DNA of 64,000 nucleotides from Candidatus Omnitrophota bacterium (GCA_903856085.1 CAIOAT010000013.1:103430-167429), one strand, 5' to 3'. Positions 989 through 56,297 are shown, counted from the first letter of the stretch. A program made the numbers and translations. Notes: generated by a model from the letters alone, not told the origin.

Positions 989-2137
989 TCAATGAAATGC
1001 TGTTTCAACAACATGGCAACTCGTGCGCCACCACACATCTAATTCTTTCGGAAAATATTTTATCCGCTCTTTTTTGAGTTCCCGGGTCGTTACGAGCACC
1101 TGGTGCGGCCACTTTCCGATACGGTCTTGAATACGCCGGGTCAAGAGATCGAGCGCCGCAGCCGTTTCAGCTCGGACTACCGTGTAAAGTGAATACGGAA
1201 ATTCCGGGTAAGCCGGCCGCCGACCCGCATAAAGAACTTCGCCGAAGTCCGCGATCTCGGGTCCTAGCCGCTCGAGCTTCTCTTCCGGAATTTGCCAAAC
1301 CAGGAGCGTTCGGGTCTCCGTAACAGTCGCGACAGATTTCAGAAAACTTCCGATCTTTTTGAGACAACCTTTCCCGATAAGCGACATCATCCGCTCCAGC
1401 GCCTGAACTTCCGTGATCCCAAGATCCGAAGCGATCTTCCGGTAAGGTTCGTCTGTCAGCGGGAACGGCTCCTGCAACTTCCGGATCATTCCAATCTCTT
1501 CTGCTGAAAGCCCATCTTCGAGCACGGCTTCGCCGGGAGCTTGCAAGCGGCTGGAAATCTCAGAATTTCCACAGCTTGTACTCGTCGCACGAGACGACAA
1601 GCAACGCTTCTCAAAACGCTCGCTCATGGCCGGAAATGTTTCCGCGTCCAAAGAGCTTAAGAGGTCGGTCCCCTTAAATACCTTACGAACGGGTAAAAAC
1701 AATACCCTCTGGGCCCCCGCAAGTTTCCCAAGACACTGGACATGCAATTCAAGATCATACCCCGATGGGACCGCGATAAAAAACCAAAGATTGAACTCGT
1801 GTTCACGCTCACAGCCGTAGACCACCCCCGGATGCTGCCAAAGGACTTCGGTCCGGGACTCAAGCTCTGCCGCATCGGACAGCAAGTGACGCTCCTGTCC
1901 GATCCGCACCGCGACCCAAGCACTTTGATAATGGAACGCGCGCGGATCCAGAATGGCCTTGATCCCTCCGAAGGTCCCTTCCCTTTTGAGACGTTGGATA
2001 CGAACCAGAAGCTCCGCACTGTCTGAGCCGATCTTCGCGGACCAAACATCAAAAGGCCGCGGAGTCAGCGGAAGCCCGTTTTGGAGATAACTCAAAAGAA
2101 GACGATCTTTTTCATCCATAGTCCCAACACCTATCAA
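989..2137 (-). CDS. Fused two-domain Lrp/AsnC-like siroheme decarboxylase-type protein (AhbA/AhbB or NirD/NirL-like).
   Basis: 382-aa ORF with two tandem halves, each with an N-terminal HTH-like segment ([24 protein letters not shown]..., [23 protein letters not shown]...). The conserved NLWF motif ([10 protein letters not shown]) is typical of AhbA/B and NirDLGH. It ends 21 nt upstream of the thiC start. Confidence 0.55.
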
Positions 2138-2175
2138 TTAAAACGAAGTTGAAATTGGGGCAGTCCCCATTCCAA
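2129..2175. repeat. Palindromic repeat family, copy A (degenerate short variant, related to the copy at 44894-44943).
   Basis: CCTATCAATTAAAACGAAGTTGAAATTGGGGCAGTCC. It aligns with copy F, CCTATCGATTTCAACGGAGTTGAAATCGGGGCAATCC, and with the right arm of copy E, GAAATTGGGGCAGTCCTCGTCAACCC. Confidence 0.6.
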
Positions 2176-2359
2176 GCAATCGAAGCAAAGCTGAGATTGG
2201 AGCTGTTTTAAAGGACCCCCGGGAGGCTTGAGAACAATACCTGAAAGCATAATAGCCGAGGGAGCAGGGTTTGTCTATAAAAGGGCGGGAAATGCGTAAC
2301 GCTCCCCGGGGAACGTATTCGTTTGTCGTTCCCCGTTCATCGTCCCCCGTTTATTGGAA

Positions 2360-2719: not shown

Positions 2720-2761
2720 AGTTCCTCTCATCTCACCCCAGCACGTGGCACTAGGGTTGAT

Positions 2762-4609: not shown

Positions 4610-4817
4610 GGATCTTCAACATTTCTCCAGAGATCCAACCCTTCGCTTCAAAGCCTGGATCCTATTTTCACAAAAATGCAGCCTATTTAAAACTTCCAAA
4701 GCCTCTTGTTCTCGTCTACCCTTCAAGAGACAAAATCAAAGACAAGCCCTCCGAATCCTTTAAATCAATAGCAACACAGCCTTTGGAACGGAGCGCCTTC
4801 TATTATCGGCATGTTCC

Positions 4818-5225: not shown

Positions 5226-5518
5226 TATTTTTCTTTCGGACAGAAAACTCGAACCACAAACAGCATGGGACTATAAGAAAAAATAGTTGCGTTAGTCATT
5301 GAACAGTTCTTTAGGGAAATCCCGAGGTTAAACGATTGAAGGTATTGTACCCAACAGCCTTACCCTATGGAATCTTTTTATCAGCACTAATTCTCTATGA
5401 AAAAATGAACGGATAATCCGTACAGTCCAAGTCGCCCTTCATGAAAAAAATCAAGACTTAGACAGGAAAAGAAGCGGCTTAAGGCCCTCTTAACCCCTAC
5501 TCTAACCCCTTATCTTCA

Positions 5519-5546: not shown

Positions 5547-5554
5547 GACGGCCT

Positions 5555-22682: not shown

Positions 22683-22934
22683 TTAATAATTAAAAAGATC
22701 CCGATGCGCAAACTTTAGTTCGGGAAGTGCGTTATGGATCGCACTCAGAATCTTGGTTTTGGCCCTGGCGGTCAGACGCCTTCCCTTGCGCGCCTTTTGC
22801 ACCACCTTATGGGACAACTGATCGGTCGAAGCCATAACAAGCACATGGTTGGTAAGCCCGTGCTTTGTCATCAGAGTATCAAGCGGCTGCAGTCCGAAAT
22901 CGTTTTCATCTTTCATGTCTGGAGGAACGGTCAT
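22683..22934 (-). CDS. Small basic hypothetical protein (83 aa). The start codon lies inside the terminus of repeat copy B.
   Basis: ORF MTVPPDMKDENDF...KARKGRRLTARAKTKILSAIHNAL. It has no recognisable family. Its ATGACCGT start is supplied by the repeat, so it may be an ORF created by the repeat. Confidence 0.3.
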   Translation of the reverse strand: MTVPPDMKDENDFGLQPLDTLMTKHGLTNHVLVMASTDQLSHKVVQKARKGRRLTARAKTKILSAIHNALPELKFAHRDLFNY

Positions 22935-23020
22935 TGTTTAAAGTCCTGTTGTCATTAAGGTTGACCAGGAACGCCCCAATTTCAACTGCGTGAAATTGAT
23001 GGGTATTGGGACGATCATGT
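22926..23020. repeat. Palindromic repeat family, copy B (long variant).
   Basis: ACGGTCATTGTTTAAAGTCC...AAGGTTGACCAGGAACGCCCCAATTTCAACTGCGTGAAATTGATGGGTATTGGGACGATCATGTCTGAAGC. The CCCAATTTCA/TGAAATTG stem can form a hairpin. Its terminal ACGnTCAT(T)GT motifs are repeated directly. Confidence 0.7.
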
Positions 23021-24028: not shown

Positions 24029-25833
24029 GGTTGAAGTTTTCCCATTTTTCTTTCTAAAGAGCTCCACTCGGCCTCGGCAGCTTCAATCTGGATCTGCAGC
24101 TCCTTTAAGCGCACGTTGCGATCTTTGGAAAAATGGAGCGGGTTCTTCGCTATCTCTTCGAGAACTTTATTCCGTTCTTCGGTAAAATGCCGCGCACGCC
24201 CCTCGGCCTTTTCCATCCCCTTGCGAAGTTTTGAAAGCTCAGCTTTATGCTCATCCTTTTTAGGCTGCTGGACTTCAACATTGAGTCTGGAAGCAGCACT
24301 TTGGGAAGATGCAGACCCGCTATCCTCATCAGTATCTTCTTCCTCCCCTCGAGCCACCTGCTCCAGGTGATAAACATAATCCTCATAACTTCCGGGATAA
24401 TGGAGGATACGGCCTTTCTTCACTTCGAGAATGCTTGAGGCCAGAAGATTGACAAAGGTCCGATCATGGCTGATGAAAACCACAGTGCCGGAGAATGTCT
24501 TGAGCGCGCGCCCCAAAGCTTCCACAGTCTCGAAATCCAGATGGTTCGTCGGCTCGTCCAGAAGCAGGACATGGCTCTTTGAAAGAAGGATTCCCGCCAA
24601 AACGAGTCGCGCCCGCTCGCCGCCACTGAGAACCTTCACCTTCTTTTCGACATCATCCCCTTTAAAAAGAAAGCATCCGGCCATATTAAGCACATCCTGA
24701 CGGGTCACGCCATCCGAGCTCTCGCGCAAAAGATAAGTGTACACATCATCGTCCGGGTCAAGCACCGCAAAGACATGCTGGGCATAATAAGCGACTTTAA
24801 GCCCTGTTCCCCAGCGAAAGCTACCGCCTTTGGACACGAGATCTCCCGCCAGAGTCCTGAGGAATGTCGTCTTTCCTTCACCGTTATTGCCGAGCACCGC
24901 GACATGCTTTCCACGATCGATCTCAACCTGGATGCCGCGCGCAATATCTTTTTCCGGATAACCGATCACAAGATCTTCGCAGGTCACCGCGACCCCCGCT
25001 TTCGGCTCCACAGGTGGGATATGGATCTTGACCGTGCTCATCGGATGCGCGATTTCGATCGTCTTGAGTTTTGAGAGCTGTTTCATCTTTGACTGGGCGC
25101 GCGTCGCCGTGGAGGCCTTGGCCTTAAACCGGTCAATAAAAGTCTGCAGTTGTTCGCGCTTTTTGTCGAGCCCGCGATTGTAGGCCTGCTTTTGCGCGAG
25201 TTGTTCTTCCTTAAACTCGAAATATTCTTCGATATCCCCGGGGAAAAGAGCAAGTCCTCCGTGCTCAACCTCGAGAGTATGGTCGCAAGTCCGCTTCAGA
25301 AACTCCCGGTCGTGGGAAACCACCAGATATCCGCCTCTGAAATTAAGCAGAAAATTCTCCAGCAGGATCAACGTGCTTAGATCCAAATAATTGCTAGGTT
25401 CGTCAAGAATCAGGAAATTGGGATCACCCAGGAGCATCGCCGCAAGCTTCACGCGGGTCTGGAAACCTCCCGGAAGATTCCGCACAGATTCTTCGAGGAT
25501 CTCGTTTTTAAGCTGGAACCGCGCAGCGATCTGCCCGCATTCCCAATGCTCGCTCCGTGTGGTGCGCATCAAGAAATCCACCACCCGCTCGCCGGGCTTG
25601 AAGGTGTCATGCTGTTCGAGATAGGAAAGACGCAGCGCAGCATTACGCGTGATAGTACCGCTGTCGGCCGATTCGTGTCCGGTGATGATGCGGCAAAGCG
25701 TGGATTTCCCGGCACCGTTTCGACCGATCACGCCGATCTTTTGGTCATCACCAAAAGACGCCGTCGCGGCATCCAGGATCGTCACAGCGCCGTAGGCTTT
25801 ATGAAGCTCGTTAACTTGTAAAAGGACGGTCAT
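24025..25833 (-). CDS. ABC-F family ATPase (two ABC domains plus a C-terminal coiled coil; Uup/EttA-like).
   Basis: Two Walker A motifs (GRNGAGKST, GNNGEGKTT), two LSGG signatures and a charged coiled-coil C-terminus. The MTV start codon lies in the terminus of repeat copy C. Confidence 0.85.
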   Translation of the reverse strand: MTVLLQVNELHKAYGAVTILDAATASFGDDQKIGVIGRNGAGKSTLCRIITGHESADSGTITRNAALRLSYLEQHDTFKPGERVVDFLMRTTRSEHWECGQIAARFQLKNEILEESVRNLPGGFQTRVKLAAMLLGDPNFLILDEPSNYLDLSTLILLENFLLNFRGGYLVVSHDREFLKRTCDHTLEVEHGGLALFPGDIEEYFEFKEEQLAQKQAYNRGLDKKREQLQTFIDRFKAKASTATRAQSKMKQLSKLKTIEIAHPMSTVKIHIPPVEPKAGVAVTCEDLVIGYPEKDIARGIQVEIDRGKHVAVLGNNGEGKTTFLRTLAGDLVSKGGSFRWGTGLKVAYYAQHVFAVLDPDDDVYTYLLRESSDGVTRQDVLNMAGCFLFKGDDVEKKVKVLSGGERARLVLAGILLSKSHVLLLDEPTNHLDFETVEALGRALKTFSGTVVFISHDRTFVNLLASSILEVKKGRILHYPGSYEDYVYHLEQVARGEEEDTDEDSGSASSQSAASRLNVEVQQPKKDEHKAELSKLRKGMEKAEGRARHFTEERNKVLEEIAKNPLHFSKDRNVRLKELQIQIEAAEAEWSSLERKMGKLQP

Positions 25834-25940
25834 TGTCTAAAATTCTTTTCTATTACGGTTGGTAATAACCGCCCCAATCTCAGCATTGCTTCGATTGATG
25901 GGTAATGGGACGTTCATTGTTTAAGATTCTATTTTATGGG
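25824..25940. repeat. Palindromic repeat family, copy C (long variant).
   Basis: GGACGGTCATTGTCTAAAATTC...GGTTGGTAATAACCGCCCCAATCTCAGCATTGCTTCGATTGATGGGTAATGGGACGTTCATTGTTTAAGATTC. A direct repeat of ~22 nt sits at both ends. It is nearly identical to copy G inside waaA. Confidence 0.7.
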
Positions 25941-27116: not shown

Positions 27117-27226
27117 TCATAACTCCTATGAAATCGATACAAACATCACGCGTTACCGGAGGGCTCGCTCAAGATCAGGCGCCGCAACAACCCGCTTGTT
27201 TAGCACCGTTTTCCATTTGATTTTGC

Positions 27227-27302
27227 GGGTTAACGGTACAATCCAATTCTTAGCAATCTCCGCAAACCGGAAATTGGGGCAGTCCTCGTCAACCCTTCAG
27301 GG
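27227..27302. repeat. Palindromic repeat family, copy E (both arms present).
   Basis: GGGTTAACGGTACAATCCAATTCTTAGC...GGAAATTGGGGCAGTCCTCGTCAACCC. The arms are imperfect reverse complements. Confidence 0.65.
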
Positions 27303-27360
27303 AACAAACTCCAAGACGAGGGCAGCACTGCAAATGCGCAAAATCAATAATAACGCAGCG

Positions 27361-28800
27361 CTAGTACTTGTAGTGCTCGGATTTGTAGGGACCGTCGAAA
27401 GGAACGTCAAGATACTCGGACTGCTTTTTCGTAAGCTTCGTAAGCCGGGCACCCAGTTTGTCCAAATGGAGCCGAGCCACTTCCTCATCGAGCTTCTTCT
27501 CAAGGCGATACACACCGGGCTTCTTGGGATTCATCACCAGATCGATCTGCGCGAGCGTCTGATTCGTAAAAGAATTCGACATCACGAAGCTCGGATGGCC
27601 TGTAGCACAACCCAGGTTCACAAGCCGGCCTTCGGCGAGCAGGATGATCGAGTGTCCATCCGGAAAAACATATTTATCGACTTGCGGCTTGATATTGATC
27701 CGCTTCACGCCCGGCCATTTCTGAAGTTGGACGACCTGGATCTCATTGTCAAAATGTCCGATGTTGCAGACGATGGACTCGTCCTTCATTTTAGACATGT
27801 GTTCGGCGGTAATGACATCGATATTGCCAGTCGTGGTCACGTAAATATCCCCAATATCAAGAACATCCTCGATGCGTGCAACCTGGAAACCGGCCATAGT
27901 CGCTTGAAGCGCGCAAATCGGATCGATTTCCGTCACAATGACGCGAGCCCCAAAACCATGCATGGCCTGAGCACTGCCTTTGCCAACATCCCCGTAACCC
28001 AATACCACGGCGACCTTGCCCGCGATCATCACATCCGTCGCGCGCTTGATGCCATCCGCCAAAGACTCGCGGCAGCCGTAAAGATTGTCGAATTTGGATT
28101 TGGTCACAGAATCGTTCACGTTTATGGCCGGAACCAAAAGTTTCCCCTGTTCCTGCATTTTGTAAAGCCGATGAACGCCGGTCGTCGTTTCCTCGGAAAC
28201 GCCTTCCCATTCTTTGACCACGCCGTGCCATTTCTTAGGCTCATCCTTCATGATCTTTTTGAGAAGTTTGAACAATTCAATCTCATCCTGCGTGTCAACC
28301 TTCTTATCGAGGATCTTGGGGTTCTTCTCCGCATCATAACCCAGATGGATCATGAGCGTTGCATCGCCGCCGTCATCCACGATAAGATTCGGCCCCTTGC
28401 CACCCGGAAAATTGAGCGCTTGAAGCGTGCACCACCAATATTCCTCCAGAGTCTCTCCTTTCCACGCGAAGACCGGAATGCCTTTGACAGCCAAAGCCGC
28501 CGCGGCATGATCTTGGGTGGAGAAAATATTACAGGAACACCAACGGACGTCCGCCCCGAGCTCAATCAAAGTCTCGATCAGAACCGCCGTCTGGATCGTC
28601 ATGTGAAGACTGCCCATGATCCGCTTGCCCTTGAGAGGTTTCTGGGGCCCGTACTTCTTGCGGGTCGCCATTAACCCTGGCATTTCTTTCTCGGCCATAT
28701 CGAGCTCTTTGCGACCCCAATCAGCAAGCGAAAGGTCCGCGACCTTGAAATCGCGTTTCAATTTAAGAGCAGGGACTGTCTTCTGAGCTTTTTTCTTCAT
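27361..28800 (-). CDS. ahcY: Adenosylhomocysteinase.
   Basis: 479 aa. N-terminus [20 protein letters not shown]-binding [10 protein letters not shown] and HFDNEI motifs. Confidence 0.9.
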
Positions 28801-28814
28801 GTTCTAAAATTTCT

Positions 28815-28912
28815 TTCTGTAAGGTTGACCATGCCCGCCCAATTCTCCGCCTTCTTTTGATTCACGGTGAATTGGACGGTCATGCTTACCCGTTGATTTG
28901 GAATTGAATAGT
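28815..28912. repeat. Palindromic repeat family, copy D.
   Basis: AAGGTTGACCATGCCCGCCCAATTCTCCGCCTTCTTTTGATTCACGGTGAATTGGACGGTCATGCTTACC. It lies in the ahcY leader. It also contains an ATGACCGTC-initiated 28-codon frame that ends on the ahcY ATG. Confidence 0.65.
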
Positions 28913-28946: not shown

Positions 28947-30134
28947 TTAAGCTGCGCAAGTCACTTTGCTGCAACCGCAGTTGTCTTTGAGTTTCAACGC
29001 CTTCCGGAGTTGATCGACCGCGTCTGTTTTTTCCCACGTAAAGCCGGCTTCCGTACGGCCAAAGTGCCCGTACGCGGCGGTTTTATTGTATATGGGACGA
29101 CGAAGATCGAGCGTTGCGATGATCCCCTTTGGCGTGAAATCAAACACTTTGCGGACCGCTTCGACGATCGCTTCGTCATCGATCTTGCTGGTCCCGAACG
29201 TATCCACTCGTATCGACACAGGTTCCGCCACGCCGATCGCGTAGGAGACCTGGATCTCGCAACGTTTGGCAATGCCGGCTGCAACGATATTCTTTGCGAC
29301 GTAACGGGCAAAATACGCGGCCGAGCGATCCACCTTGGAAGGATCCTTCCCGCTAAACGCACCACCCCCGTGACGGCCCATGCCACCATAAGTGTCCACG
29401 ATGATCTTGCGACCCGTAAGACCTGTGTCTCCGTGCGGTCCACCTACCTCGAAACGTCCGGTCGGATTGATGAAGATCTTGGTGTTCTTATCCATCAAGT
29501 TAGCCGGAATGACCTTCTTGATGACTTTCTCGATCAGATCCTTGGTGATCGTCGGAAGCGTCACATCCCCGTCATGTTGGGAGCTCAGCACCACGGCGTC
29601 TACACGCACCGGCACATCACCATCATATTCCACCGTAACCTGGCTCTTTGAATCCGGCCGGAGATACGTGATCTTGCCGCTTTTACGAACCGCGGTCAAA
29701 TAGCGAACGAGTTTTTGAGCGAGCATGATCGGAAGCGGCATAAGTTCTTTCGTCTCATTCGACGCAAAACCGAACATCATGCCCTGGTCTCCGGCGCCGC
29801 CTGTATCAACACCCATCGCGATATCGGGAGACTGGGTATGGAGTGCAATATCAACCCGGCAAGTCTTGTAATCGAAACCGATCGAGGGGTCCACATAGCC
29901 GATCTTACGGATGACCTCGCGAGCAACCTTTTCGGCATTAACTTTGGTCTTGCTCGTAATCTCTCCGGCGATGGTCAAGCGGTCCGTCGTGGCCAGGCAT
30001 TCGCAGGCCACGCGCGACGCGGGATCGCCCGCGAGATAAGCATCAAGAATGGCATCAGAAACCTGGTCGCAGACCTTGTCCGGATGCCCTTCAGAAACGG
30101 ATTCAGAAGTGAAGAAATAATGCCCTTTTTTCAT
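28947..30134 (-). CDS. metK: S-adenosylmethionine synthetase.
   Basis: [27 protein letters not shown]..., GGGAFSGKD and DRSAAY motifs. The start was set at the MKKGH ATG (30134). The 136 extra N-terminal codons in the ORF track are read-through into the neighbouring gene. Confidence 0.9.
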
Positions 30135-30141
30135 AGTGGTG

Positions 30142-30906
30142 TTACTCCTTTGGATTTTTTGGGGTGTTAACGATGGCGTTGGCTTTCTGATAAGAGGCAA
30201 GGTCGCCGATATCCAACCATTTTCCCTTAAGAGAAAAAGCAAAGAGGCCCGCTGTTTCAGCCAGCCAACGCATATAATGGCCGGGTTGGTCGGTATTATG
30301 GCCGCTTGTGATATACCTGTCAAGCAGGCTCCAGGTCTCCTTGGGGAGCCAATAGATGCCACTGGAGGCAAGCGTAGTAGTCGGTTGGGGCGGTTTTTCC
30401 TGAAATTCCAGGATCTTCCCTCCGGCATCGGTCCTGACCAACCCATAACGCTTGGCGAGTTCCTTATCCCCGACATCGTAGACCGCAATAATGCCGTGCG
30501 GCCTTTTCTTTTTCCCGAAATCAACAAACGATGCCAGATCAAAATCGAAGAAATTGTCTCCCGCGATCACTAAAAGATCACAAGGATCGACCTTCTCCGT
30601 CTTGATCACGTACGCCAGATCTCCGATAGCTCCAAGACGGTTCTCGTTACTCGTGGTGTGATCATTCACGACCTTGACCGGCCAGGGGTATTTTACTTTT
30701 GCAGCCCATGATTCGAAATGCCCCGCGAATTTCTGATTGCTCACCAAATAAACGACCTCTACCCCTTGGACTTTTTCGACGCGTTCCAGAATCCACTCCA
30801 AAATAGGCTTATTCCCCACCGGAAGCAGGGGTTTCGGAAGATTTTCGGTGAGAGGATAAAGACGCGTCGCGTATCCCGCGCAGAGAATGATGACTTTTAA
30901 GCCCAT
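30142..30906 (-). CDS. Sugar-phosphate nucleotidyltransferase (mannose-1-phosphate guanylyltransferase-like or HddC-like).
   Basis: N-terminal [26 protein letters not shown] nucleotidyltransferase motif. 254 aa. Confidence 0.7.
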
Positions 30907-42474: not shown

Positions 42475-42520
42475 TTTAAATTCCTCACGAGGTTTGCCTG
42501 TCCTGACATCTATTTTATTT

Positions 42521-43318
42521 TCATCGAAGATTGCCAGGGCTAGTCCAATTAACCTTCAACTCTTTTGACGGAGAATTGGCCTGTAAACGCTTTTCGACTT
42601 CCTGCAGATCCTCTTCCGTGTCCACGCTGATGAAATCATACGCCGTTTCGATCACGCGAATGGAACGGCCCCTTTCGAGGATCCTGAGCTGCTCTAATTT
42701 CTCGGTATTTTCCAGGATTCCAGGCTCCCAAGCAACAAATTTCAAAAGAAATTCGCGCCGATATCCGTAAACTCCCAGATGTTTCAAAAAACTGAACGCA
42801 CAATTTTGTTTTCCTTGAAAGAACGGGATGGCCGCGCGTGAAAAATAAAGCGCGTTCCCCTCCGCGTCACAAACGATTTTAACAACATTGGGATTCTCAT
42901 AACTTTCCTTGTCCGTCATCCGCACGGCCAGGGTCAGGACTTCCACATCCTTCGCTCGTTCAAAAATGCTCACCATCTCGTCAAGCGCCTTCGGGTCCAC
43001 GAGAGGCTGATCGCCCTGAATATTGATCACCAGTTCCTGTTTGAAACGACCCATGACTTCCGCAATCCTCGAGGTCCCGTTCGGATGGTCTTTGCGCGTC
43101 ATGAAAGCCTTACCACCAAACCCTTCAACGCATTGCTGGATACGCGTGTCGTCGGTGGCTACGATCACATCCTCAAGCTTTTTCGCCTGTCTCGCGCGTT
43201 CCCAAACATGCTGGATCATGGGCTTGCCGCCGATGGAACGCAGGATCTTTTCGGAAAGGCGCGTGGAACCTAAACGTGCGGGGATAACACCGAGGGCTTT
43301 CATATTCTCTAGGCTCAT
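42521..43318 (-). CDS. kdsB: 3-deoxy-manno-octulosonate cytidylyltransferase (CMP-Kdo synthetase). Its C-terminal tail is encoded by a repeat copy.
   Basis: [18 protein letters not shown]-terminus. The C-terminal [17 protein letters not shown] is encoded by repeat copy H2. Confidence 0.85.
42527..42582. repeat. Palindromic repeat family, copy H2 (short variant), overlapping the kdsB 3' end.
   Basis: GATTGCCAGGGCTAGTCCAATTAACCTTCAACTCTTTTGACGGAGAATTGG. It is related to copies at 48655 and 46160, and to copy D. Confidence 0.6.
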
Positions 43319-44851: not shown

Positions 44852-44893
44852 TAAAGGGTCTCTCCTTTGAAGACACGCATTATAGTCCTGATA

Positions 44894-44943
44894 CCTATCG
44901 ATTTCAACGGAGTTGAAATCGGGGCAATCCTTGTCAACCGTTC
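44894..44943. repeat. Palindromic repeat family, copy F (short variant with a perfect GATTTCAACGGAGTTGAAATC palindrome).
   Basis: CCTATCGATTTCAACGGAGTTGAAATCGGGGCAATCCTTGTCAACCG. Confidence 0.65.
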
Positions 44944-44990
44944 AAGAAAAGAATCCGAGACAAGGACAGGGAGAAAAGAAATAATTTCAA

Positions 44991-45794: not shown

Positions 45795-46564
45795 CAGTTC
45801 CGGATAGTCCCGTCAAGGCCGATCACGACCCTCTTAATGGCAAGGCGTGTCCCGGAGAGTTCAACCGCTTCCTGAACCATGCGAAAGAGCCCCGAACAGC
45901 ACGGCACTTCCATGATCACCACGGTAAGTGAATAAATAATGTTATTCTTGAGGAGTTCGGCGATCTTTTCGACATACTCGCCAGTTTCATCCAGCTTGGG
46001 ACAGGCAATGACGAGTCGCCTCCCTTTCAGCATATCCTGATGAAAACTTCCAAGCGTAAAGGCCGTACAGTCCGCTGCGATCAAAAGATCGCACTCCTTG
46101 AAATACGGCGCAACCGGCGAGATCAGATGAAGCTGGATCGGCCATTGGCTGAGCTCGGAGGGCGCGGGACCCGTCCCTTGAACCTTTGATTCTGTGGATG
46201 GAGAATGCGGCTTGATTTCGCGGGCCATGGAACCCGGACAACCGCCAAAATGCGGTGCGTGACCGGTGCCATGGAGTGACGCCACCCCATGAACTTTTTG
46301 CGCAGCCTCAGAACCTTGGGTCTTCAACACGTGATCGAAAGCGGCCTTGGGATCATAGTCGTTGCTGTCTCTTTCGATGATCTTGAGCGCGTCGACAGGA
46401 CAAACATCCAGGCAGGCTCCCATCCCATCACAAAAGATCTCTTTAACGAGCACGGCCTTCTTATGTTCATCCAGCACCAACGCGCCTTCCGCACAGGCCT
46501 TGGTGCAAAGCCCGCACCCATTACATTTTTCACGATCGATCTCAATGATCTTACGTTTTGCCAT
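45794..46564 (-). CDS. 2x[4Fe-4S] ferredoxin-domain protein with an uncharacterised Cys-containing C-terminal domain. It carries an in-frame repeat insertion.
   Basis: CNGCGLCTKACAEGA and CDGMGACLDVCPVDA motifs. The internal HSPSTESKVQGTGPAPSEL segment is encoded by repeat copy H3. Confidence 0.5.
   Translation of the reverse strand: MAKRKIIEIDREKCNGCGLCTKACAEGALVLDEHKKAVLVKEIFCDGMGACLDVCPVDALKIIERDSNDYDPKAAFDHVLKTQGSEAAQKVHGVASLHGTGHAPHFGGCPGSMAREIKPHSPSTESKVQGTGPAPSELSQWPIQLHLISPVAPYFKECDLLIAADCTAFTLGSFHQDMLKGRRLVIACPKLDETGEYVEKIAELLKNNIIYSLTVVIMEVPCCSGLFRMVQEAVELSGTRLAIKRVVIGLDGTIRN
46160..46212. repeat. Palindromic repeat family, copy H3, in frame inside a coding sequence.
   Basis: GGGACCCGTCCCTTGAACCTTTGATTCTGTGGATGGAGAATGCGG aligns to GGCCAGTCCCATTAACCTTTGATTCTTTTGAAAGAGAATGGGA at 48667-48709. 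Confidence 0.55.
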
Positions 46565-47677: not shown

Positions 47678-48620
47678 TCAGAAGCTCCAGAGAAAGTTCG
47701 ACCACTTTTTCAGGTTTCAATCCGTGAAAACAACTCCGTTCAGCACGGGGCAACCTCTCGGATCCACAAGCGCAGTCTTGAGCCTCTCCTCGCGCGACGC
47801 GGAATTTCGGACCCCCATGCCCATATTTCTCATGGTCCGTCGGACCGAAGATCCCGACAGTCGGCGTACCCAATTCGAACCCAAGATGCATGATCGCGCT
47901 GTCGTTGGCGACCACAAGCGAAGCCTTCGCGATAAGCGCCGCAGTCTCGGGCAAAACCAGGTCCCCGCAAAGAACCCCGACGCTCTCGGGAAGTTCCGCC
48001 AGAATGCTGTCGGCCACTGGCCTCTCATTAAGAGTCCCCACCAAAAGAATCTTTTTTCCGGTCTTCGCATGAAGCTTCCGGATCACTTCCTTAAAATATT
48101 GAACCGGCCACCGTTTTCTCTCGCTGGCCGCCCCTGCCGCCACAAGGATCCATCCCCTCTTTTCCTGGATCCCTATAACGTCCAAAGCGCGCATCGCAAA
48201 AACCTCATCCGCTTTGTTAAAGAAAAGAAAAGAAGACGGAACGGGAATATCGGATTCCACCCCCGCAAGCATTTCGAGATGACGATCTCGCATGTTGACC
48301 CTGGTGAATTTTCTGAAAAGCGGGGTCCTTTTCTTGCAGGAAACCAAAAACGGGATCACGGTATTTCGCAGGTCCACAACGCAGTCGTATTTTACCTTGC
48401 GCAGTTCCGCAATGAATTTCAATTTTTGTCCCAAGGAAGCTTTCTTATCGTAGATGACGGTCTTATAGATGTCGGGGCTTCTCTGCAGAACGCTCCGCGC
48501 ACGCGGTCCGACCACTACCGTGAGCCGCGCCTCGGGATATTTCCGAACAAGGGCCATGATCACCGGCGTCGTCAGGATCACATCCCCGAAATTGCTTAAT
48601 GTCACGACGAGAATATTCAT
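47658..48620 (-). CDS. Glycosyltransferase family 9 (heptosyltransferase-like).
   Basis: MNILVVTLSNFGDVILTTPVIMALVRKYPEA N-terminus. The start was taken at the MNILVV ATG, overlapping the upstream stop as ATGA. Confidence 0.75.
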   Translation of the reverse strand: MNILVVTLSNFGDVILTTPVIMALVRKYPEARLTVVVGPRARSVLQRSPDIYKTVIYDKKASLGQKLKFIAELRKVKYDCVVDLRNTVIPFLVSCKKRTPLFRKFTRVNMRDRHLEMLAGVESDIPVPSSFLFFNKADEVFAMRALDVIGIQEKRGWILVAAGAASERKRWPVQYFKEVIRKLHAKTGKKILLVGTLNERPVADSILAELPESVGVLCGDLVLPETAALIAKASLVVANDSAIMHLGFELGTPTVGIFGPTDHEKYGHGGPKFRVARGEAQDCACGSERLPRAERSCFHGLKPEKVVELSLELLNANQAA

Positions 48621-49723
48621 GTTTTCCTCAGGTCCTGGCATCCATTTTCTTTCCGTAAAAGGTTGCCAGGGCCAGTCCCATTAACCTTTGATTCTTTTGA
48701 AAGAGAATGGGAGAGGATCTTTTCGATCGCCGTCAAAACCTCCTCCGGAGTAATATGCGAAAGCCAGCCTTCGGCCGGAAGGTTCTTACCGAAAAAAGGG
48801 ACCACATAACCTGGGGGAACATATTGTAGTACAAGGCTCTCGCCTCTTCCACGGGGTCCGGTGAGTTTTGGATCGGTAGGACCAAAAAGAGCGATGACTG
48901 GAGCACCGACACCGGAAGCAATATGCATAGGTCCGGAATCGCCACTCACAAGACACGCGGCCTGCTCATAAATAGCCGCCGAAACCCCGAGACTGGTCTT
49001 TCCCACGAACGAGAGAAAACGCGCCTTTTTTACTTTTCCAGAAAAGGCCTCGAAGAGCGCCTCATCTTGCCGCGAGCCTGTCACCACGACAGGCAGGCCT
49101 CGCGTTTCGTGGATTTTGTCGGCGAGCTCCGCAAAATATGCTGGAGGCCAACGCTTCGGCTCCCAATTCGCCCCAAGATGAAAACAAATAAAAGAACCTT
49201 TTTTCTCAAGGCCTTTGTCCTTTAAGAGCCGTAACGCCAGGTCCCGGTCTTCTTTTTTGTAATAAAATGTATACGCCGGAGCTTGAGGGATCTCAAACCC
49301 TGCACGACGCATTAAATCAAGAAAATAGTCCAATTGATGCATTCGCTGGGACGGTTCCGAAATCGCCTGGGTTAAAAAAAACGTTCGCCCCTTGCCGAAT
49401 CCGATCCGTTCCTTGACCCCTGCCAGCATTAAAAGCAAAGCCCGGGTTCTGGAACGGTGGAAAAGATACCCCTGATCCCACGGTCCCTTTTTCCCGAGCT
49501 CGAAAGCGAACTGGATCCTTGGGAAAAGCGGTCGGTGCGTTGTCTTTTCATCGAAAGGCATGAATCCGGAGACCGCAGGATGAGCCTCGAGAATCTCGCG
49601 ACAACGCTCAGGAGCGACGCAAGTGATCGACGCCTCCGGGTATTTTTTTTTGATGAGATCCAGCGCAGGCATCTGGAAAAGCAGGTCCCCGAGCCAATTT
49701 TTCATGACGACAACAATCTTCAT
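48617..49723 (-). CDS. Glycosyltransferase family 9 (heptosyltransferase-like) with a repeat-encoded C-terminal tail.
   Basis: MKIVVVMKNWLGDLLFQMPALDLIKKKYPEA N-terminus. The C-terminal ...SKESKVNGTGPGNLLRKENGCQDLRKT is encoded by repeat copy H1. Confidence 0.75.
   Translation of the reverse strand: MKIVVVMKNWLGDLLFQMPALDLIKKKYPEASITCVAPERCREILEAHPAVSGFMPFDEKTTHRPLFPRIQFAFELGKKGPWDQGYLFHRSRTRALLLMLAGVKERIGFGKGRTFFLTQAISEPSQRMHQLDYFLDLMRRAGFEIPQAPAYTFYYKKEDRDLALRLLKDKGLEKKGSFICFHLGANWEPKRWPPAYFAELADKIHETRGLPVVVTGSRQDEALFEAFSGKVKKARFLSFVGKTSLGVSAAIYEQAACLVSGDSGPMHIASGVGAPVIALFGPTDPKLTGPRGRGESLVLQYVPPGYVVPFFGKNLPAEGWLSHITPEEVLTAIEKILSHSLSKESKVNGTGPGNLLRKENGCQDLRKT
48655..48715. repeat. Palindromic repeat family, copy H1, forming the 3' end of a GT9 gene.
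   Basis: AAGGTTGCCAGGGCCAGTCCCATTAACCTTTGATTCTTTTGAAAGAGAATGGGAGAGG. Confidence 0.6.
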
Positions 49724-51816
49724 AGTGAGAGCGCCCTTTGACAATGTTCAAACACTTCTTCCACAGAAATATGGGTAAGGCAGGCCTTCGTTTCCTTAGC
49801 TTTGCAAACGCCATCGTAACAAGGCTGGCAAGGCAAATGATGCGAGAGCACATCGATCTTTTTCCCGGGCGGGACATGCCGCTTGGCGTCCGTGGGGCCA
49901 AACAAGGCCACGATCGGGACATTCATGGCCGCGGCCATATGAAGCGGCGCCGTGTCCCCTGTCACGACCAGATGAAGCTGTTTGAAAAAAGCCGGCAATT
50001 CCTCCAACGCGGTTTTGCCGATGAGATCGAGGATCTTGCCGGACCCGAAGGAATAGAACGGTCGCCCGAGATCCGCTTCGTCAGAAGACCCGATCAGGAC
50101 GATCCGCGCATCATATTTCTCAAGGAGCCGTTTCGCAAGAGAGACAAAATGTTCCTGAGGCCAACGTTTGCTCGGCCAATTTGGGCTGGATCCCATCACA
50201 AACCCAATGATCCGGGTCGATTCCTTGGGCTCGAGCGTGCCGATCATCTGATTTGCTTTTTCAAGGCTTTCGGATTTTGGCCAGAGTTCCAGCGTGTCAT
50301 CGAATTTAATAACCCCGGCCTTGGACAGCACGCGAAACTGATGGCGAAGAGGCGAATCCCCGACCTCGAAGGTCCTGTCAGGCCGGTTCAGCAAGAATCC
50401 CCATCTTCCGCGTGCAAACCCGAAACGCTGGACCGCCCCACCGAGATAGGCCAGAAGATGTGTCCACTTATTGTTGTGAAGATCGATAGATATATCAAAA
50501 CCTTCGCGGCGAACGCGACGAGCGGTCTTCAAAAGATAAAAAAGATTCGAAAGCTTCTTCCGGTCCACCAGGATCATGTCATCCAGGTAAGGACATGCCG
50601 ACACGATCGGCGCGAGTTTGCGATCCACAAGGAGAGTGATCGAGGCGTCGGGAAAACGTTCCTTGAGCATTCGCAGACTCGGTACGACCAGGATGAGATC
50701 CCCCATCGCCCCGAGCTTGATCACAAGGATTTTCCGGCGTTTACGAACCTCCTGATAGACCTCAAGCGTCTTCCGGACCATTTGCTCCAGGTTGAATTTC
50801 TCCTCCACTTTTTTTCGCAGTTTCACCGCAAACGCCTTGGCCTTATCCCGGTCCGTCAGAAGCTCGTACATCGCCTCAGCCATCGCAGGAATATTCCTCG
50901 GTGGAAAAAGCAAGCCGTTCTCATTATTGTCGATGATGTCTGGCACGCCGCCCAGCCAGGTCGCAGTCACAGGAGTCCCCACAGCACCCGCTTCAATGAT
51001 CACACGACCGAAAGGTTCGGGAATAAGCGAAGACAGCACCAAAAGATCAGACTCGGCCAAAAGTCCCGCCACATCCCGCGTCGGCGGAAGGATCTTGACG
51101 CAACTCTCGAGCCCGAATTGGTGCACGGTTTTTTTCATCAGATCCGTGTAACGGTGTTTGCCGCGCCCCTCGGAACCGACGATCCATACTTCAAAATGGG
51201 AAAGCCGGCTGCGCAACAAATGAATGGCTTTGAGAAATTCCACCTGCCCCTTGGCCGGAGAAAAACGTCCGATATGGATGATCCTCATCGGCCCTGAATG
51301 CTTTTCGAATTTCGCGAACGAGAAAGTAAATTGCGAAAGATCAACGCCGCGCGGAATCAATCGGATGCGATCCGGTGGAACATTGAATTCGTCGATCATT
51401 CTCCGGCCGATCGCGTGAGACGCTACGATCACGCGCTTGCCCCACCCCATCACAAAACTCATCAGATGAACAGAGTAATGTCCGTGACAGGTCGTAATAA
51501 AGGGTATGCCGGTTTTACGGGCCGCAAGCCACCCGAGCCAGGCCGGAACGCGGCTGCGCGCATGAACGATGTCCACGCGCTCCCGCTGGATGATCTTCAC
51601 AAGTTCTTCGACCAGAAATAAACCCGCCAGAGATTTCTGATGCACGGGCAGTCCGTAATGCGGGATTCCGATCTTCTGAAGTTCGGCCACAAGCGACCCG
51701 CCGGATGAGACGACCACCGTCGCGTGCCCTTCCTTTTTCATGGCTCGCGCCAGATCCACCACCCCACGCTCGGTCCCGCCAAGCTCAAGAGCCGGCAAAA
51801 GCTGCATCACCTTCAT
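49720..51816 (-). CDS. Fusion protein: N-terminal GT4 (family-1-fold) glycosyltransferase plus C-terminal GT9 heptosyltransferase-like domain.
   Basis: N-terminal half has the GT4 E-x7-E region (EPFGRVIIEAGAVGTPV). C-terminal half has the GT9 pattern (ILVIKLGAMGDLILVVPSLRMLKERFPDA). 698 aa. Confidence 0.7.
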   Translation of the reverse strand: MKVMQLLPALELGGTERGVVDLARAMKKEGHATVVVSSGGSLVAELQKIGIPHYGLPVHQKSLAGLFLVEELVKIIQRERVDIVHARSRVPAWLGWLAARKTGIPFITTCHGHYSVHLMSFVMGWGKRVIVASHAIGRRMIDEFNVPPDRIRLIPRGVDLSQFTFSFAKFEKHSGPMRIIHIGRFSPAKGQVEFLKAIHLLRSRLSHFEVWIVGSEGRGKHRYTDLMKKTVHQFGLESCVKILPPTRDVAGLLAESDLLVLSSLIPEPFGRVIIEAGAVGTPVTATWLGGVPDIIDNNENGLLFPPRNIPAMAEAMYELLTDRDKAKAFAVKLRKKVEEKFNLEQMVRKTLEVYQEVRKRRKILVIKLGAMGDLILVVPSLRMLKERFPDASITLLVDRKLAPIVSACPYLDDMILVDRKKLSNLFYLLKTARRVRREGFDISIDLHNNKWTHLLAYLGGAVQRFGFARGRWGFLLNRPDRTFEVGDSPLRHQFRVLSKAGVIKFDDTLELWPKSESLEKANQMIGTLEPKESTRIIGFVMGSSPNWPSKRWPQEHFVSLAKRLLEKYDARIVLIGSSDEADLGRPFYSFGSGKILDLIGKTALEELPAFFKQLHLVVTGDTAPLHMAAAMNVPIVALFGPTDAKRHVPPGKKIDVLSHHLPCQPCYDGVCKAKETKACLTHISVEEVFEHCQRALSL

Positions 51817-53762: not shown

Positions 53763-54811
53763 TAATTTCTCACTCCCAGTAAACGAAAAAGTCGGTCCGT
53801 GAGGATCTCTTCTCCCGACACGACTCGAAGTCGCGCGGCAAGGACCAGCGGGTTCAGCGTCTCAGTGATCAACTCGCGGGAACGGTAAAAATCCTTTTCC
53901 GTCGTGATGATCTCCTCAGCACCCGCTGATTGCGCGACCTCTTTGATCTTCAGAAGCTCTTCTTTGGTGTATTCATGATGGTCCAGGAATTCGAAGTTCC
54001 GGACGGTCTTGAGTTGAAAACGTTGCAGGACGAGCTGAAAGGATCTTGGGGTCCCCACCGCCGCGAAGGTTGCGACGCGCCGACCGGTCATTTTCTCGAT
54101 CGATGTCCGGACTTTGGTCTTGGCACGATAAAGGAACAACACTTCCATCATGGTCTCGACCATTTGCGCCTGCGGCGCCAGAACCGCGATCTTCTCCTTA
54201 AGCTTCTTGAGTTCCTCGGGGCTTACAAGATTCACATGGGTAAGCACGATAATGGCCGCACGCTTCATGACGGTGAGCGGTTCACGCAAAATACCCCGCG
54301 GAATAAGCTTTCCATTGCCGAAGGGGTTTAGCGAATTGACAACCACGATATCGACATCCCGGTGGAGGGCCTGATGCTGAAGCCCGTCGTCGAGGATGGC
54401 GATATCCACATGCCGTTTCTCGGCCTTGACGCGCTGGGCGACCTTCGCGCGATCCTTGCCGACACCGATGACCGCGGTCGGAAGATGATTCTGAAGTTCC
54501 ACCGCCTCATCATGACTGTAACCACGCGTGAGAACCAATGGCACGCGCCGGTGCATACCGATCTTGCGGGCGAGATATTCTACGAAAGGTGTTTTGCCCG
54601 TGCCTCCCCAGGTGAGATTGCCAACGCTGATGACCGGATAAGGAAGACGTTTGCGTGCCAGCACCTTGTTCTCATAAAGCCAGCGGAATGTCCGGACCCC
54701 GTAGCCGTATCCCCATGCCGCGAAAGAAAGAAGCGCCAAGAGAACTCCGCTCGTCGGGTCATTTTGTTTGTCCTCCGCCAAGAGACGAAAGTAATTCTTC
54801 ATGCTGTCCAT
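53762..54811 (-). CDS. lpxK: Tetraacyldisaccharide 4'-kinase.
   Basis: VISVGNLTWGGTGKTP P-loop. 349 aa. It overlaps the waaA 3' end by ~40-50 nt. Confidence 0.8.
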   Translation of the reverse strand: MDSMKNYFRLLAEDKQNDPTSGVLLALLSFAAWGYGYGVRTFRWLYENKVLARKRLPYPVISVGNLTWGGTGKTPFVEYLARKIGMHRRVPLVLTRGYSHDEAVELQNHLPTAVIGVGKDRAKVAQRVKAEKRHVDIAILDDGLQHQALHRDVDIVVVNSLNPFGNGKLIPRGILREPLTVMKRAAIIVLTHVNLVSPEELKKLKEKIAVLAPQAQMVETMMEVLFLYRAKTKVRTSIEKMTGRRVATFAAVGTPRSFQLVLQRFQLKTVRNFEFLDHHEYTKEELLKIKEVAQSAGAEEIITTEKDFYRSRELITETLNPLVLAARLRVVSGEEILTDRLFRLLGVRN

Positions 54812-56297
54812 TTCTGTTGATCCTTTCTTGAGAATACCGGCCTCGAAGAAACGTCAGAATCCACCCGGCCTGACGCTTGCTGGCACCCCGTAAACGGTTG
54901 ACGATCTGAAAAGCCCTTTGCCCCATTTCATGACGCCTGCTCTCATTAGCGAGGAGCTCCGCCGCCGCGGACGACAGTTCGTCCGGAGCCGAGATCCTGA
55001 GAGCGCCACCGTCATGATCGAGCTGGTGGTAGATCTTGTGAAAGTTAAAAACATGCGACCCATGGAGTATTGCTTTACTAAAACGCGCGGGCTCGATCGG
55101 GTTCTGACCTCCGTGAGGGATCAGACTCCCGCCCATGAACACAAGATCCGCGATCTGGTACAGATTCTTGAGAACACCTAATTGGTCCAGGATCTGCACC
55201 GCAGGCCCTGAACCTTCTTTTTTCCTTGCCCCAACTTTCATCATGTTTTCATGACTGGTCGTTGGGGCTAGCCCAATGAACCTTTCATTATTTTGATGGA
55301 AATTTGGGCTTGTTGATAGAACCACACTAAAACCATATTTCTCCAATTGCTTTAAAAGCCCTTGCGAACGCTCAATGTGACGCGGCGCAAAGATCAGCTT
55401 GAGCGTCGGAAACCGCTCTCGCAACGCTTGAAAAGCAACCATGAGCGTTTCCTCTTCCCCCGGATGCGTGCTTCCCGCGATCCACACAAGATCGTCCGGT
55501 GCATATCCCCAGACCTGCCGCAGGCCGGCCGCATCCGCCCAAACTTTTCCCTTCTTTTCTAAAATAGTATTTTGGACGGCCCCAATCCCCGCTTCGCTTC
55601 GATTGATCGGTATTGGGACCGCCGCGCTGGCATCGGCCCATTCCGCCTGGTCAAACTTCATATTCCCCATGTCCCGAACAGATTCTTCCGCAACACCCAA
55701 TCCCCGGAAACGGCCCGCATCCTCCTCAGACTGAGCGAGCACAAAATCCAGCTTTCCCCAGAGCGGTTTAAAAAGCCACGGAAAAATCTTGTATCTTTTG
55801 AACGAACGCTCCGAAAGACGGGCATTGATCACGCCCACCGGGATATTCCGTTGTTTGGCTTCGGTCAAGAGGTTCGGCCAGATCTCGGTCTCTACGAGCA
55901 GCAAGCAGACCGGCTTAAAAAGATCGAGAAAGCGCTTCACAATCCATGTTAAATCAAACGGAAAATAGCAGACGTGGACCCGTTCCCCCGCGAATTTCTT
56001 CGCGATCCTCTGTCCGGTCGGCGTCACAGTCGTCAGCAGCAATTCATATTCCGGGGCGGAGGCAAGCCATTCCTGCATGAACTTTTCAACGGCCATCACC
56101 TCCCCCACGCTCACAGCATGTAGCCAGATAATTTTCTTGTCGGAAAATTTTCCGGCCCATTCCTTCGGAAAAATCCCTCGGCGTTCCCGCCAAAGCGCGT
56201 CCGGATCTTCAGCTTGGCGGAGTTTGATTAAAAAAATCGGAAGATAAAGAATCCCGAACACCGCGAATGCCAGATTGTATAAGAATGTTCTTATCAT
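54759..56297 (-). CDS. waaA: 3-deoxy-D-manno-octulosonic acid transferase (Kdo transferase) carrying an in-frame ~27-aa repeat-encoded insertion.
   Basis: KdtA conservation: HAVSVGE, LLLTTVTPTG, VWIAGSTHPGEE, FAPRHIER. It is 512 aa against a typical ~425. The segment AAVPIPINRSEAGIGAVQNTILEKKGK between KFD and VWIAGSTH is encoded by repeat copy G. Confidence 0.8.
   Translation of the reverse strand: MIRTFLYNLAFAVFGILYLPIFLIKLRQAEDPDALWRERRGIFPKEWAGKFSDKKIIWLHAVSVGEVMAVEKFMQEWLASAPEYELLLTTVTPTGQRIAKKFAGERVHVCYFPFDLTWIVKRFLDLFKPVCLLLVETEIWPNLLTEAKQRNIPVGVINARLSERSFKRYKIFPWLFKPLWGKLDFVLAQSEEDAGRFRGLGVAEESVRDMGNMKFDQAEWADASAAVPIPINRSEAGIGAVQNTILEKKGKVWADAAGLRQVWGYAPDDLVWIAGSTHPGEEETLMVAFQALRERFPTLKLIFAPRHIERSQGLLKQLEKYGFSVVLSTSPNFHQNNERFIGLAPTTSHENMMKVGARKKEGSGPAVQILDQLGVLKNLYQIADLVFMGGSLIPHGGQNPIEPARFSKAILHGSHVFNFHKIYHQLDHDGGALRISAPDELSSAAAELLANESRRHEMGQRAFQIVNRLRGASKRQAGWILTFLRGRYSQERINRNGQHEELLSSLGGGQTK
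55560..55625. repeat. Palindromic repeat family, copy G (long-variant core), in frame inside waaA.
   Basis: GGACGGCCCCAATCCCCGCTTCGCTTCGATTGATCGGTATTGGGACCGCCGC. Compare intergenic copy C, CCGCCCCAATCTCAGCATTGCTTCGATTGATGGGTAATGGGACG. Confidence 0.65.

Follow-up and report, generated by a model that had tools for sequence, protein, structure and literature searches.

Repeat units and genes of the window

The 64,000-nt stretch of Candidatus Omnitrophota DNA analysed here (GCA_903856085.1, CAIOAT010000013.1:103430-167429), called the window throughout, carries dispersed copies of a palindromic repeat that had been proposed, in an original prediction made on the sequence alone, to form a miniature non-autonomous repeat family. 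As defined from many aligned copies, the repeat unit is ~84 nt (28 codons) long and consists of two adjacent hairpins, a first hairpin (HP1) followed by a second (HP2). Its copies lie among genes assigned by Pfam and NCBIfam to a nirDL-like regulator, malic enzyme, an ABC-F ATPase, an iron alcohol dehydrogenase (Fe-ADH), AhcY, MetK, PyrG, KdsB, heptosyltransferases, KdtA, LpxK and the nuo operon. These are unrelated housekeeping genes without a common function, so paralogous protein domains, considered as a source of the similarity, cannot explain it and were ruled out.

Two subfamilies are present in the window, an A-type (GTCCCAAT...ATTGGGGC) and an H-type (CCAATTCTCC...GGTTAATTGG), with eight A-type units at seven loci, three clear and one decayed H-type units, and one relic. 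They are listed below with scores in bits from a covariance model trained on A-type units only (c6 and the c1 dimer were left out of training), E values from leave-one-out nhmmer searches, or fold z scores.

2121..2161, + strand: c1a, A-type HP1, first of a head-to-tail HP1-HP1 dimer (leave-one-out E 3.6e-9; the dimer matches the covariance model at 2119-2209 with 60.8 bits, outside the training set); intergenic, antisense to the neighbouring nirDL-like and response-regulator genes, with an in-frame TAA.
2163..2203, + strand: c1b, A-type HP1 ('CGAAGC' loop type), second of the dimer, without a clear HP2 (leave-one-out E 2.8e-6; also found by a mechanical repeat finder).
5425..5463, + strand: relic with HP2 only (GTCCAAGTC, A-rich loop, GACTTAGAC), upstream of nuoA (covariance-model match 5405-5469, 23.7 bits, E 7e-4; weak fold, z -1.8).
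22928..23012, - strand: c3, A-type HP1 and HP2, at the 5' end of an 83-aa open reading frame (ORF) (64.7 bits).
25827..25911, - strand: c4, A-type, between the Fe-ADH and ABC-F genes (69 bits).
25912..25930, - strand: partial upstream unit (loop and 3' arm) adjoining c4 (direct repeat, 25823-25849 against 25907-25933, 78%).
27241..27324, + strand: c7, A-type, intergenic between the Fe-ADH gene and ahcY and antisense to both (57 bits).
28795..28877, - strand: c5, diverged A-type, between metK and ahcY (leave-one-out E 0.026; 44.3 bits).
42500..42581, - strand: c9, H-type (30 bits, E 1.8e-5; fold z -2.6; also found by the repeat finder); KdsB (42521-43318), whose Pfam domain ends at residue 220 of 265, takes its last ~20 aa and its stop codon from the HP1 part of the unit, the remainder of which is intergenic.
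44885..44968, + strand: c8, A-type, the best-preserved copy (81.7 bits; fold z -3.97, both hairpins); intergenic, antisense to the neighbouring Zn-ribbon and DUF3108 genes.
46166..46208, - strand: decayed H-type fragment of doubtful membership, in a 4Fe-4S protein gene (H-type sequence model, E 4e-6).
48632..48713, - strand: c10, H-type, encoding the C-terminal ~30 aa of a heptosyltransferase (48617-49744) (80% identical to c9; 36.5 bits; z -3.2).
55230..55314, - strand, ends within 1-2 nt: c11, H-type, in the C-terminal domain of KdtA (36.5 bits; z -4.25).
55536..55619, - strand: c6, A-type, between the N- and C-terminal domains of KdtA in frame 0, AVPIPINRSEAGIGAVQNTILEKKGKVW (80.1 bits, outside the training set).

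A mechanical repeat finder independently recovered the segments as direct and inverted families of up to 80 nt, an alignment (MAFFT) of eleven oriented segments holds over ~60 columns, and leave-one-out nhmmer searches recovered every copy with E values from 3e-12 to 0.03, with a maximum of 12.5 bits in 20 dinucleotide shuffles of the window. The similarity therefore persists at full length rather than falling apart there. Nine of the ten segments that the original prediction had united belong to the family; the tenth, at 46160-46212, is weak, being matched by the H-type hidden Markov model (HMM) only, with no covariance-model match and no fold (z +1.07). The inventory of at least ten copies also stood, although two units were absent from it: the HP1 at 2163-2203, second of its tandem pair, and at ~55230-55314 a unit of the H-type. 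The short core by which the copies had been recognized did not hold up as a signal: the exact 8-mer CCCCAATT has three matches in the window against 3.5 expected, so the core alone is uninformative. Three length variants had also been described, but the good copies share one ~84-nt, two-hairpin unit, of which the earlier coordinates mostly covered the first hairpin. Finally, the terminal direct repeats attributed to copies B and C are real and consist of the HP2 3' arm plus part of a preceding unit, but they occur in only ~20 of 175 copies, all in tandem arrays, which rules them out as a general trait of the family or as a long target duplication.

Anatomy, fold and covariation of the unit

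Measured from GTCCC to the end of HP2, units are most often 84 nt long (89 of the 152 that could be measured), with 83 nt in another 35, and the head tetranucleotide GTCC is present in 161 of 175 units. HP1 (41 nt) is conserved in sequence. Its outer stem pairs GTCCCAAT with ATTGGGGC and includes a T.G pair that is found in 137 of 139 units; the hairpin further has a 9-nt bulge on the 5' side (ACYTATCAA), and an interior formed by a covarying 7-bp inner stem and a triloop. With both partners invariant, an alternative HP1 register, in which ATCAAT pairs with ATTGGG, is not separable from the outer stem. HP2 begins 1-2 bases after HP1; its 5' arm of 9-10 nt and a complementary 3' arm form a stem of 9-10 bp around a 22-25-nt A-rich loop, which has ACC close to its start. 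The arm sequences of HP2 vary among copies and complementarity is kept, for example in GTCCTTGTC/GACAAGGAC, GCACTGACT/AGTCAGTGC, GGTCATCGTC/GACAATGACC and GCCCTGGCT/AGTTAGGGC.

Pairing and covariation were assessed on a plain MAFFT alignment of 140 units, with slid 3' partners and 500 shuffles as controls. Standard pairs fill 91.3% of cells, compared to 32-52% when the 3' partners are slid, and double-sided changes are found in 19 of 24 pairs, including all eight of HP2 and six of the seven in the HP1 inner stem; none of the 500 shuffles reached the observed values. When the invariant T.G pair is left out of the count, G.U pairs are more numerous than A.C mismatches (111 vs 57), which indicates that one strand folds better than the other. 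Folded singly, as the original prediction had envisaged, units of the window form the two hairpins with z scores from -1.6 to -4.3, the segment at 46160-46212 being the exception. Sequence HMMs of the A-type and H-type do not detect one another; the covariance model trained only on A-type units detects the three good H-type units at 30-36.5 bits, so the H-type is a diverged relative with the same fold.

Distribution in Candidatus Omnitrophota

A scan for the pattern GTCCCNNNNCCNATCAATN{11,12}GRRATTGGGGC, which specifies ~23 bases, was made over 596 Gb of sequence with one genome per species, for which ~0.1 matches are expected by chance as estimated from the specified bases. More than 113 stretches matched, in at least 18 species-level assemblies, so the possibility that a wider search would reveal no further copies did not hold. 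Among the matches listed, 13 of these assemblies are labelled Candidatus Omnitrophota or Omnitrophica, and the other five 'uncultured bacterium'. From 113 loci (given L numbers below) that were fetched as 8-kb pieces, 770 kb in total, the HMMs recovered 180 A-type and 11 H-type matches; HP1-HP1 dimers arranged like c1 are found in L030, L069, L015 and L006. The element has no match in Rfam 15 at the gathering threshold over the whole window, or at E <= 1 over 55150-55700; a tRNA scan found nothing, the element was not found in plasmid and phage collections, and a search for literature on Omnitrophota repeats gave no description of it.

Some of the fetched loci encode very large proteins. L003 and L005 are each filled over 8 kb by a single ORF of >2665 aa that contains repeat units in frame, and a 1105-aa ORF in L101 (1767-5084) holds two or more A-type units and as many as three of the H-type. 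Giant Omnitrophota proteins may be heavily colonized by the element.

Presence and absence at orthologous sites

Eight of the fetched loci show synteny with the window, their nucleotide identity to it being 80-86%, and the flanks of their units and of those in the window were mapped onto the other genome, with the following results.

Fe-ADH gene: L110 carries +84 nt; window empty.
RNase T-like gene: L038 carries +84 nt; window empty.
ThiH-like gene: L038 carries +84 nt; window empty.
292-aa ORF: L027 carries +84 nt (net difference 87); window empty.
ATPase/ABC-F junction: L026 carries +84 nt (net difference 93); window empty.
Intergenic site at ~35823: L054 carries +167 nt, a unit nested in the HP1 loop of another; window empty.
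c3 site: window filled; absent from L027, present in L073.
c7 site: window filled; absent from L110.
c5 site: window filled; HP1 and 5' arm absent from L110.
c11 site: window filled, exactly 84 nt or 28 aa; absent from the L020 orthologue and from the solved KdtA.
c4 site: window filled; shared with L110 and L073 (longer array).
c6 site: window filled; shared with the L020 orthologue (size difference 0).

Exact 84-nt presence or absence at orthologous sites is the signature of mobility. Units also insert into one another: in a histidine-kinase family that carries one unit in four genomes, L096 has an additional 84 nt as a nested unit, and in both nested cases (L054 4308-4448 and L096 1765-1877) a complete unit lies within the HP1 of another, directly 5' of GAAATTGGGGC. 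These two independent nestings suggest a preferred entry point in the HP1 hairpin. In addition, the array between the Fe-ADH and ABC-F genes varies in length, with ~1.3 units in the window (25827-25930), 2.3 in L073 (3954-4106) and about one more than the window in L110 (152-214), so that this site behaves like a variable-number tandem repeat and could be a strain marker.

Insertions within genes

The position of copies relative to genes was taken from crude gene calls. Copies were placed both between and within genes, as the original prediction had proposed for the window: between co-directional genes, 27 are in the sense and 40 in the antisense orientation, 15 lie between convergent genes, 13 between divergent genes, and many are inside ORFs. 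The occurrence of both orientations between co-directional genes means that the repeat is not an mRNA element. Long ORFs contain 25 copies, and at least 13% of all copies are in genes. Exact in-frame insertions were found in genes that include those for Fe-ADH, KdtA and a histidine kinase, and in alignments of otherwise unrelated proteins from different genomes the only common stretch is the peptide of ~30 aa encoded by the element.

The genic copies are read in frame 0 (VPIPIN..EIGAV..) 11 times, in frame 1 (PNTNQSKQSGDWGRPNYH..) nine times, in frame 2 (SQYRSIEAKLKLGQ..) twice and in antisense three times. Since all three sense frames are used, conservation is at the level of DNA. A conserved peptide with codon wobble, which variation of the CCN and GCN type had seemed to indicate, was ruled out by this three-frame use; the variable positions are the unpaired ones. 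Stop codons do not account for the sense bias of the genic copies (22 to 3), since it is the antisense frames that are open more often; the bias probably reflects which peptides were tolerated.

The KdtA encoded in the window (512 aa) contains two units, c6 and c11, and aligns with the Aquifex KdtA (PDB 2XCI) in three blocks whose gaps fall exactly at these units: residues 215-273 face residues 184-200 of the 2XCI chain at c6, and residues 325-367 face 252-262 at c11.

At c3, c4 and c5, the next gene (the 83-aa ORF, the ABC-F gene and ahcY, respectively) starts at an ATG that lies in the HP2 3' arm. These codons are at 22934-22932, 25833-25831 and 28800-28798, in the arm subtype GGTCATTGTC/GACAATGACC. 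In L027, which lacks c3, the 83-aa gene begins at an ATG that in the window is upstream of c3 and out of frame, and c3 seems to have replaced the start of this gene.

Other features of the gene complement were noted in the course of this work. A run of lipopolysaccharide genes on the minus strand (37156-57346) comprises lptC/lptA-like genes, lipid A acyltransferases, a kdsD-like SIS/CBS gene, a kdsA-like gene, kdsB, several heptosyltransferase genes, lpxK and kdtA, is broken by pyrG and a few other genes, and has four units of the window inside or at the ends of its genes. The metK ORF (28947-30542, minus strand) is listed at 531 aa, but its TTG start is probably over-extended because the Pfam domains begin at residue 142. 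A 492-aa ORF opposite ahcY (27196-28674, plus strand) matches no family and is almost certainly spurious.

Junctions and candidate mobilizing functions

Six junctions between filled and empty sites were aligned base by base with free end gaps. They show no terminal inverted repeat beyond GTCC/GGAC, no target duplication of more than 2 nt, and no evident fixed tetra- or pentanucleotide target. The GTCC...GGAC ends of the unit form a 4-bp inverted match and belong to two different hairpins. In 102 of 151 units (33 expected), and in 66 of 105 solo units (25.5 expected), the unit ends in the same dinucleotide that precedes its GTCCC. This dinucleotide can also pair with the two bases following HP1: 134 of 139 units form the outer pair and 62 of 139 the inner. 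Such covariation of a flanking dinucleotide with an internal position is not expected of a random target duplication, and it hints that sites are chosen by pairing or microhomology, a question for which filled and empty sites from different species cannot resolve the last 1-2 bases.

As the original prediction had stated, the window holds no transposase: in Pfam and NCBIfam searches of its ORFs, the only recombinase is XerC (56366-57346, minus strand; TIGR02224, 358 bits), whose place beside topA (57255-59456) and dprA (60660-61883) points to the housekeeping enzyme. HP1 copies that seemed to be without HP2 were mostly near-misses in scoring and not the ends of a longer element, and a parent insertion sequence (IS) with matching ends was found neither beside these copies nor among the ORF clusters of the fetched loci. 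Sites of the attC or dif type were considered and dropped as candidates; the flanking genes are not cassettes, and the insertions are dispersed rather than site-specific.

By Pfam, the recurrent ORF clusters of the repeat-bearing loci are DUF1016, ORF6N, DUF3307, GGDEF/EAL, Fe-ADH, PFK and pilin. The DUF1016 family (YhcG-like nuclease N-terminal domain, 365-408 aa) is present in six of these loci (L038 3-1142, L009, L049, L050, L055 and L094), has an in-frame unit in L049, and is the only nuclease-like family that recurs. Its recurrence is probably coincidental.

Interpretation

The family is best read as one of small non-autonomous selfish mobile elements of a Candidatus Omnitrophota clade, for which a probability of about 0.8 seems appropriate. 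The proposal of a miniature non-autonomous family is borne out by its many copies in at least 18 genomes, their occurrence in both orientations and the 84-nt differences at orthologous sites. The comparisons show units inserted at new sites as exact 84-nt blocks, nested in an HP1 loop and expanded into tandem arrays, with some insertions retained among related species. A trans-acting enzyme encoded elsewhere in the genome would recognize HP1 and mobilize the unit. Inside genes, only copies that keep the frame would survive, and a unit of 28 codons that is poor in stop codons, and whose A-rich loop gives a hydrophilic peptide on the sense strand, could persist in essential proteins as an extra surface or linker segment. 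The conserved hairpins would then reflect requirements of copying and not a host function.

How the enzyme works can be proposed only tentatively. Because hairpins lie at the ends, the strands are asymmetric and duplications are lacking, the preferred version, at somewhat less than even odds, is that it acts on folded single-stranded DNA as REP/RAYT or IS200/IS605 systems do, which likewise leave no duplication. A further, unlikely reading is that the family represents a new class of hairpin transposon, in which an internal 'guide' pairing sets the integration site and an enzyme not of the DDE type cuts single-stranded DNA; if so, the 28-codon, stop-poor and hydrophilic design would be an adaptation to life in essential genes.

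Several points weigh against the selfish-element reading. No transposase-like family is enriched among the 703 clustered ORFs of the repeat-bearing loci, and tblastn searches of the window and the 770 kb of loci with IS200, IS608 and RAYT queries, which serve as a lead more than as a test, gave no HUH/Y1 match, only noise (E > 0.7); these searches covered 8-kb pieces per genome, so absence of an enzyme is not established. Estimates of positional conservation in HP1 are biased at the fixed positions by the pattern with which loci were fetched, and covariation could stem in part from a few amplified subfamilies rather than from selection on each copy. Because the compared sites, filled or empty, belong to species that diverge by 15-20%, whether they differ by insertion or by precise loss, and where the ends lie to within 1-2 nt, is inferred; for KdtA alone does a distant solved homologue show absence to be ancestral. 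Several sites, such as c4 and c6, are conserved across species, and these, along with the start codons at c3, c4 and c5, suggest that individual copies may have been co-opted by the host.

Some of the same observations would suit a structured motif that serves the host and is selected at each locus, be it a cis-acting RNA (an mRNA stabilizer, translational coupler or attenuator), a set of small RNA genes, or a site on the DNA that a nucleoid or replication protein would bind. This explanation, which seems quite improbable, would account for the strong covariation in both hairpins, for the excess of G.U over A.C and the invariant T.G pair, which suggest one functional strand, and for the conservation of the HP1 sequence in at least 18 species and of the c4 and c6 sites between species. 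It would also fit the downstream start codons carried by the HP2 3' arms of c3, c4 and c5, and the short ORFs that overlap gene starts. However, a single regulatory role cannot fit copies that are spread over both orientations between co-directional genes, over unrelated coding sequences in three frames and beside genes without a common function, that differ between species by exactly 84 nt, that occur nested and in tandem, and that belong to no Rfam family; exaptation of single copies is compatible with a mobile element.

A classical MITE (miniature inverted-repeat transposable element), derived by deletion from an IS and moved by a DDE transposase that acts on terminal inverted repeats and generates a target duplication of fixed length, is very unlikely. 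The small size, high copy number, lack of coding capacity for a transposase and stable hairpin fold are as this model predicts, and the 4-bp GTCC/GGAC match and the 2-nt repeat that flanks most units could be taken for its termini and duplication. At the six junctions, however, the inverted repeat does not exceed ~4 bp or the duplication 2 nt, the flanking dinucleotide covaries with an internal position, and neither an IS with matching ends nor a DDE transposase was found in the window or the fetched loci.

A conserved peptide module (VPIPINRSxAEIGAV...), with the intergenic copies as small genes or fragments, is scarcely credible. It was suggested by apparent third-codon variation (CCA/CCC/CCG/CCT and GCA/GCG/GCC/GCT) and by recurrence of the peptide in several ORFs, and it is refuted by the frame use described above, which yields unrelated peptides. 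In addition, stem position 8, which would be fourfold degenerate, is invariant and the variable positions are unpaired, c1a has an in-frame stop, and most copies are intergenic and in either orientation. Chance or low-complexity similarity, to which the unremarkable count of CCCCAATT relative to shuffles and the weak copy at 46160 might point, has a negligible probability in view of the full-length alignments, the leave-one-out recovery, the shuffle controls and the >113 exact matches to a ~23-base pattern confined to one phylum.

Significance

Clear cases of selfish DNA in frame within essential genes are rare; the elements of Rickettsia are the textbook case, and their mode of spread is unexplained. 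The repeat described here would be a second, independent system of this kind, in an uncultured phylum of very small and possibly host-dependent cells. Its assets are a fixed and compact unit, strong covariation, many pairs of filled and empty sites between relatives, and nested and tandem forms, which together make both mobilization and protein tolerance testable by comparative genomics of existing metagenome-assembled genomes.

There are also practical consequences, since such repeats will break metagenome assemblies and give rise to small ORFs that are spurious. Gene calls become inflated or split, as illustrated by the C-terminal tails of KdsB and the heptosyltransferase and by the 512-aa KdtA, and unrelated proteins can be taken for homologues because of the shared peptides of ~30 aa. 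Where tandem arrays vary in length, they could act as strain markers.

Comparison with known repeat systems

The original prediction had labelled the family as REP-, MITE- or RPE-like. The last of these likenesses stands as the best analogy in behaviour, whereas the formal definitions of repetitive extragenic palindromes (REPs) and MITEs do not apply. Rickettsia palindromic elements (RPEs) are palindromic repeats of ~100-150 bp that lie between genes and, more often than is usual for repeats, in frame within unrelated housekeeping genes, metabolic ones included, whose products remain intact, and they have no known transposase (PMC10969869). The Omnitrophota element likewise is a palindromic repeat in frame in unrelated genes, preserves the host ORF and inserts a peptide where the protein fold can accommodate it. 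It differs in its phylum, in its unit of 84 nt rather than ~100-150 bp, in using three sense frames (11, nine and two copies) instead of one conserved peptide frame, in a two-hairpin layout of which one hairpin is conserved in sequence and the other covaries, and in its tandem and nested arrays; the likeness is one of behaviour and not of family membership.

REPs and their assemblies (BIMEs, REPINs) form hairpins, are asymmetric between strands, abundant and mosaic, lack terminal inverted repeats and target duplications, and are moved by a REP-associated tyrosine transposase (RAYT, or TnpA-REP). Work on these systems is reportedly associated with Nunvar, Ton-Hoang, Messing and Bertels. Hairpins, strand asymmetry, abundance and the lack of inverted repeats and duplications are shared with the Omnitrophota element, and recognition of a hairpin in single-stranded DNA would be the closest mechanistic analogy. 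HP1 alone, 41 nt with a bulge, fits the single REP hairpin of ~20-40 nt, but the mobile unit is 84 nt, twice as long, and includes a second hairpin. The head is GTCC and not GTAG or GTGG, the copies are not restricted to extragenic positions, and arrays are direct tandem or nested instead of inverted doublets; no RAYT gene was found in the window and the 770 kb of loci, which is a weak test.

MITEs are defined by terminal inverted repeats of ~4-30 bp and flanking direct repeats (PMC10969869). The element resembles them in being shorter than 500 bp, multi-copy, free of a transposase gene and able to form a stable stem-loop. It has no real terminal inverted repeats, only the shared 4 bp of GTCC...GGAC, and the identity of its flanks extends over 2 nt and no further and covaries with an internal position.

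Mycobacterial interspersed repetitive units (MIRUs) are intercistronic, oriented with the operon, and contain small ORFs that overlap the stop and start codons of the flanking genes. The Omnitrophota element shares with MIRU, RU and ERIC repeats a unit in the range of 40-130 bp that is sometimes in tandem with variable copy number, as at the c4 site, and short ORFs overlap flanking stop or start codons as in MIRUs, but only at c4 and c5. Unlike MIRUs, it has mixed orientation and common genic insertion, and hairpin covariation is not a defining feature of MIRUs. Enterobacterial RUs, for their part, are reported to include intragenic copies with open frames (PMC2759123).

With miniature elements derived from IS200/IS605 (PATEs), the element shares hairpins at both ends and the lack of a duplication, and its flanking dinucleotide pairs with the bases after HP1. 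In IS200/IS605 elements, which also have hairpins and make no target duplication, the target or cleavage site is recognized by pairing with internal sequence. The hairpins of the Omnitrophota element are at the very ends and not subterminal and are dissimilar to one another, no fixed target is evident at the six junctions, and neither TnpA nor TnpB was found in the sequence examined. By analogy, then, the element works like a selfish element of the RPE or REP type that stands outside any described family, with RPEs its closest counterpart in behaviour and REPs in likely mechanism.

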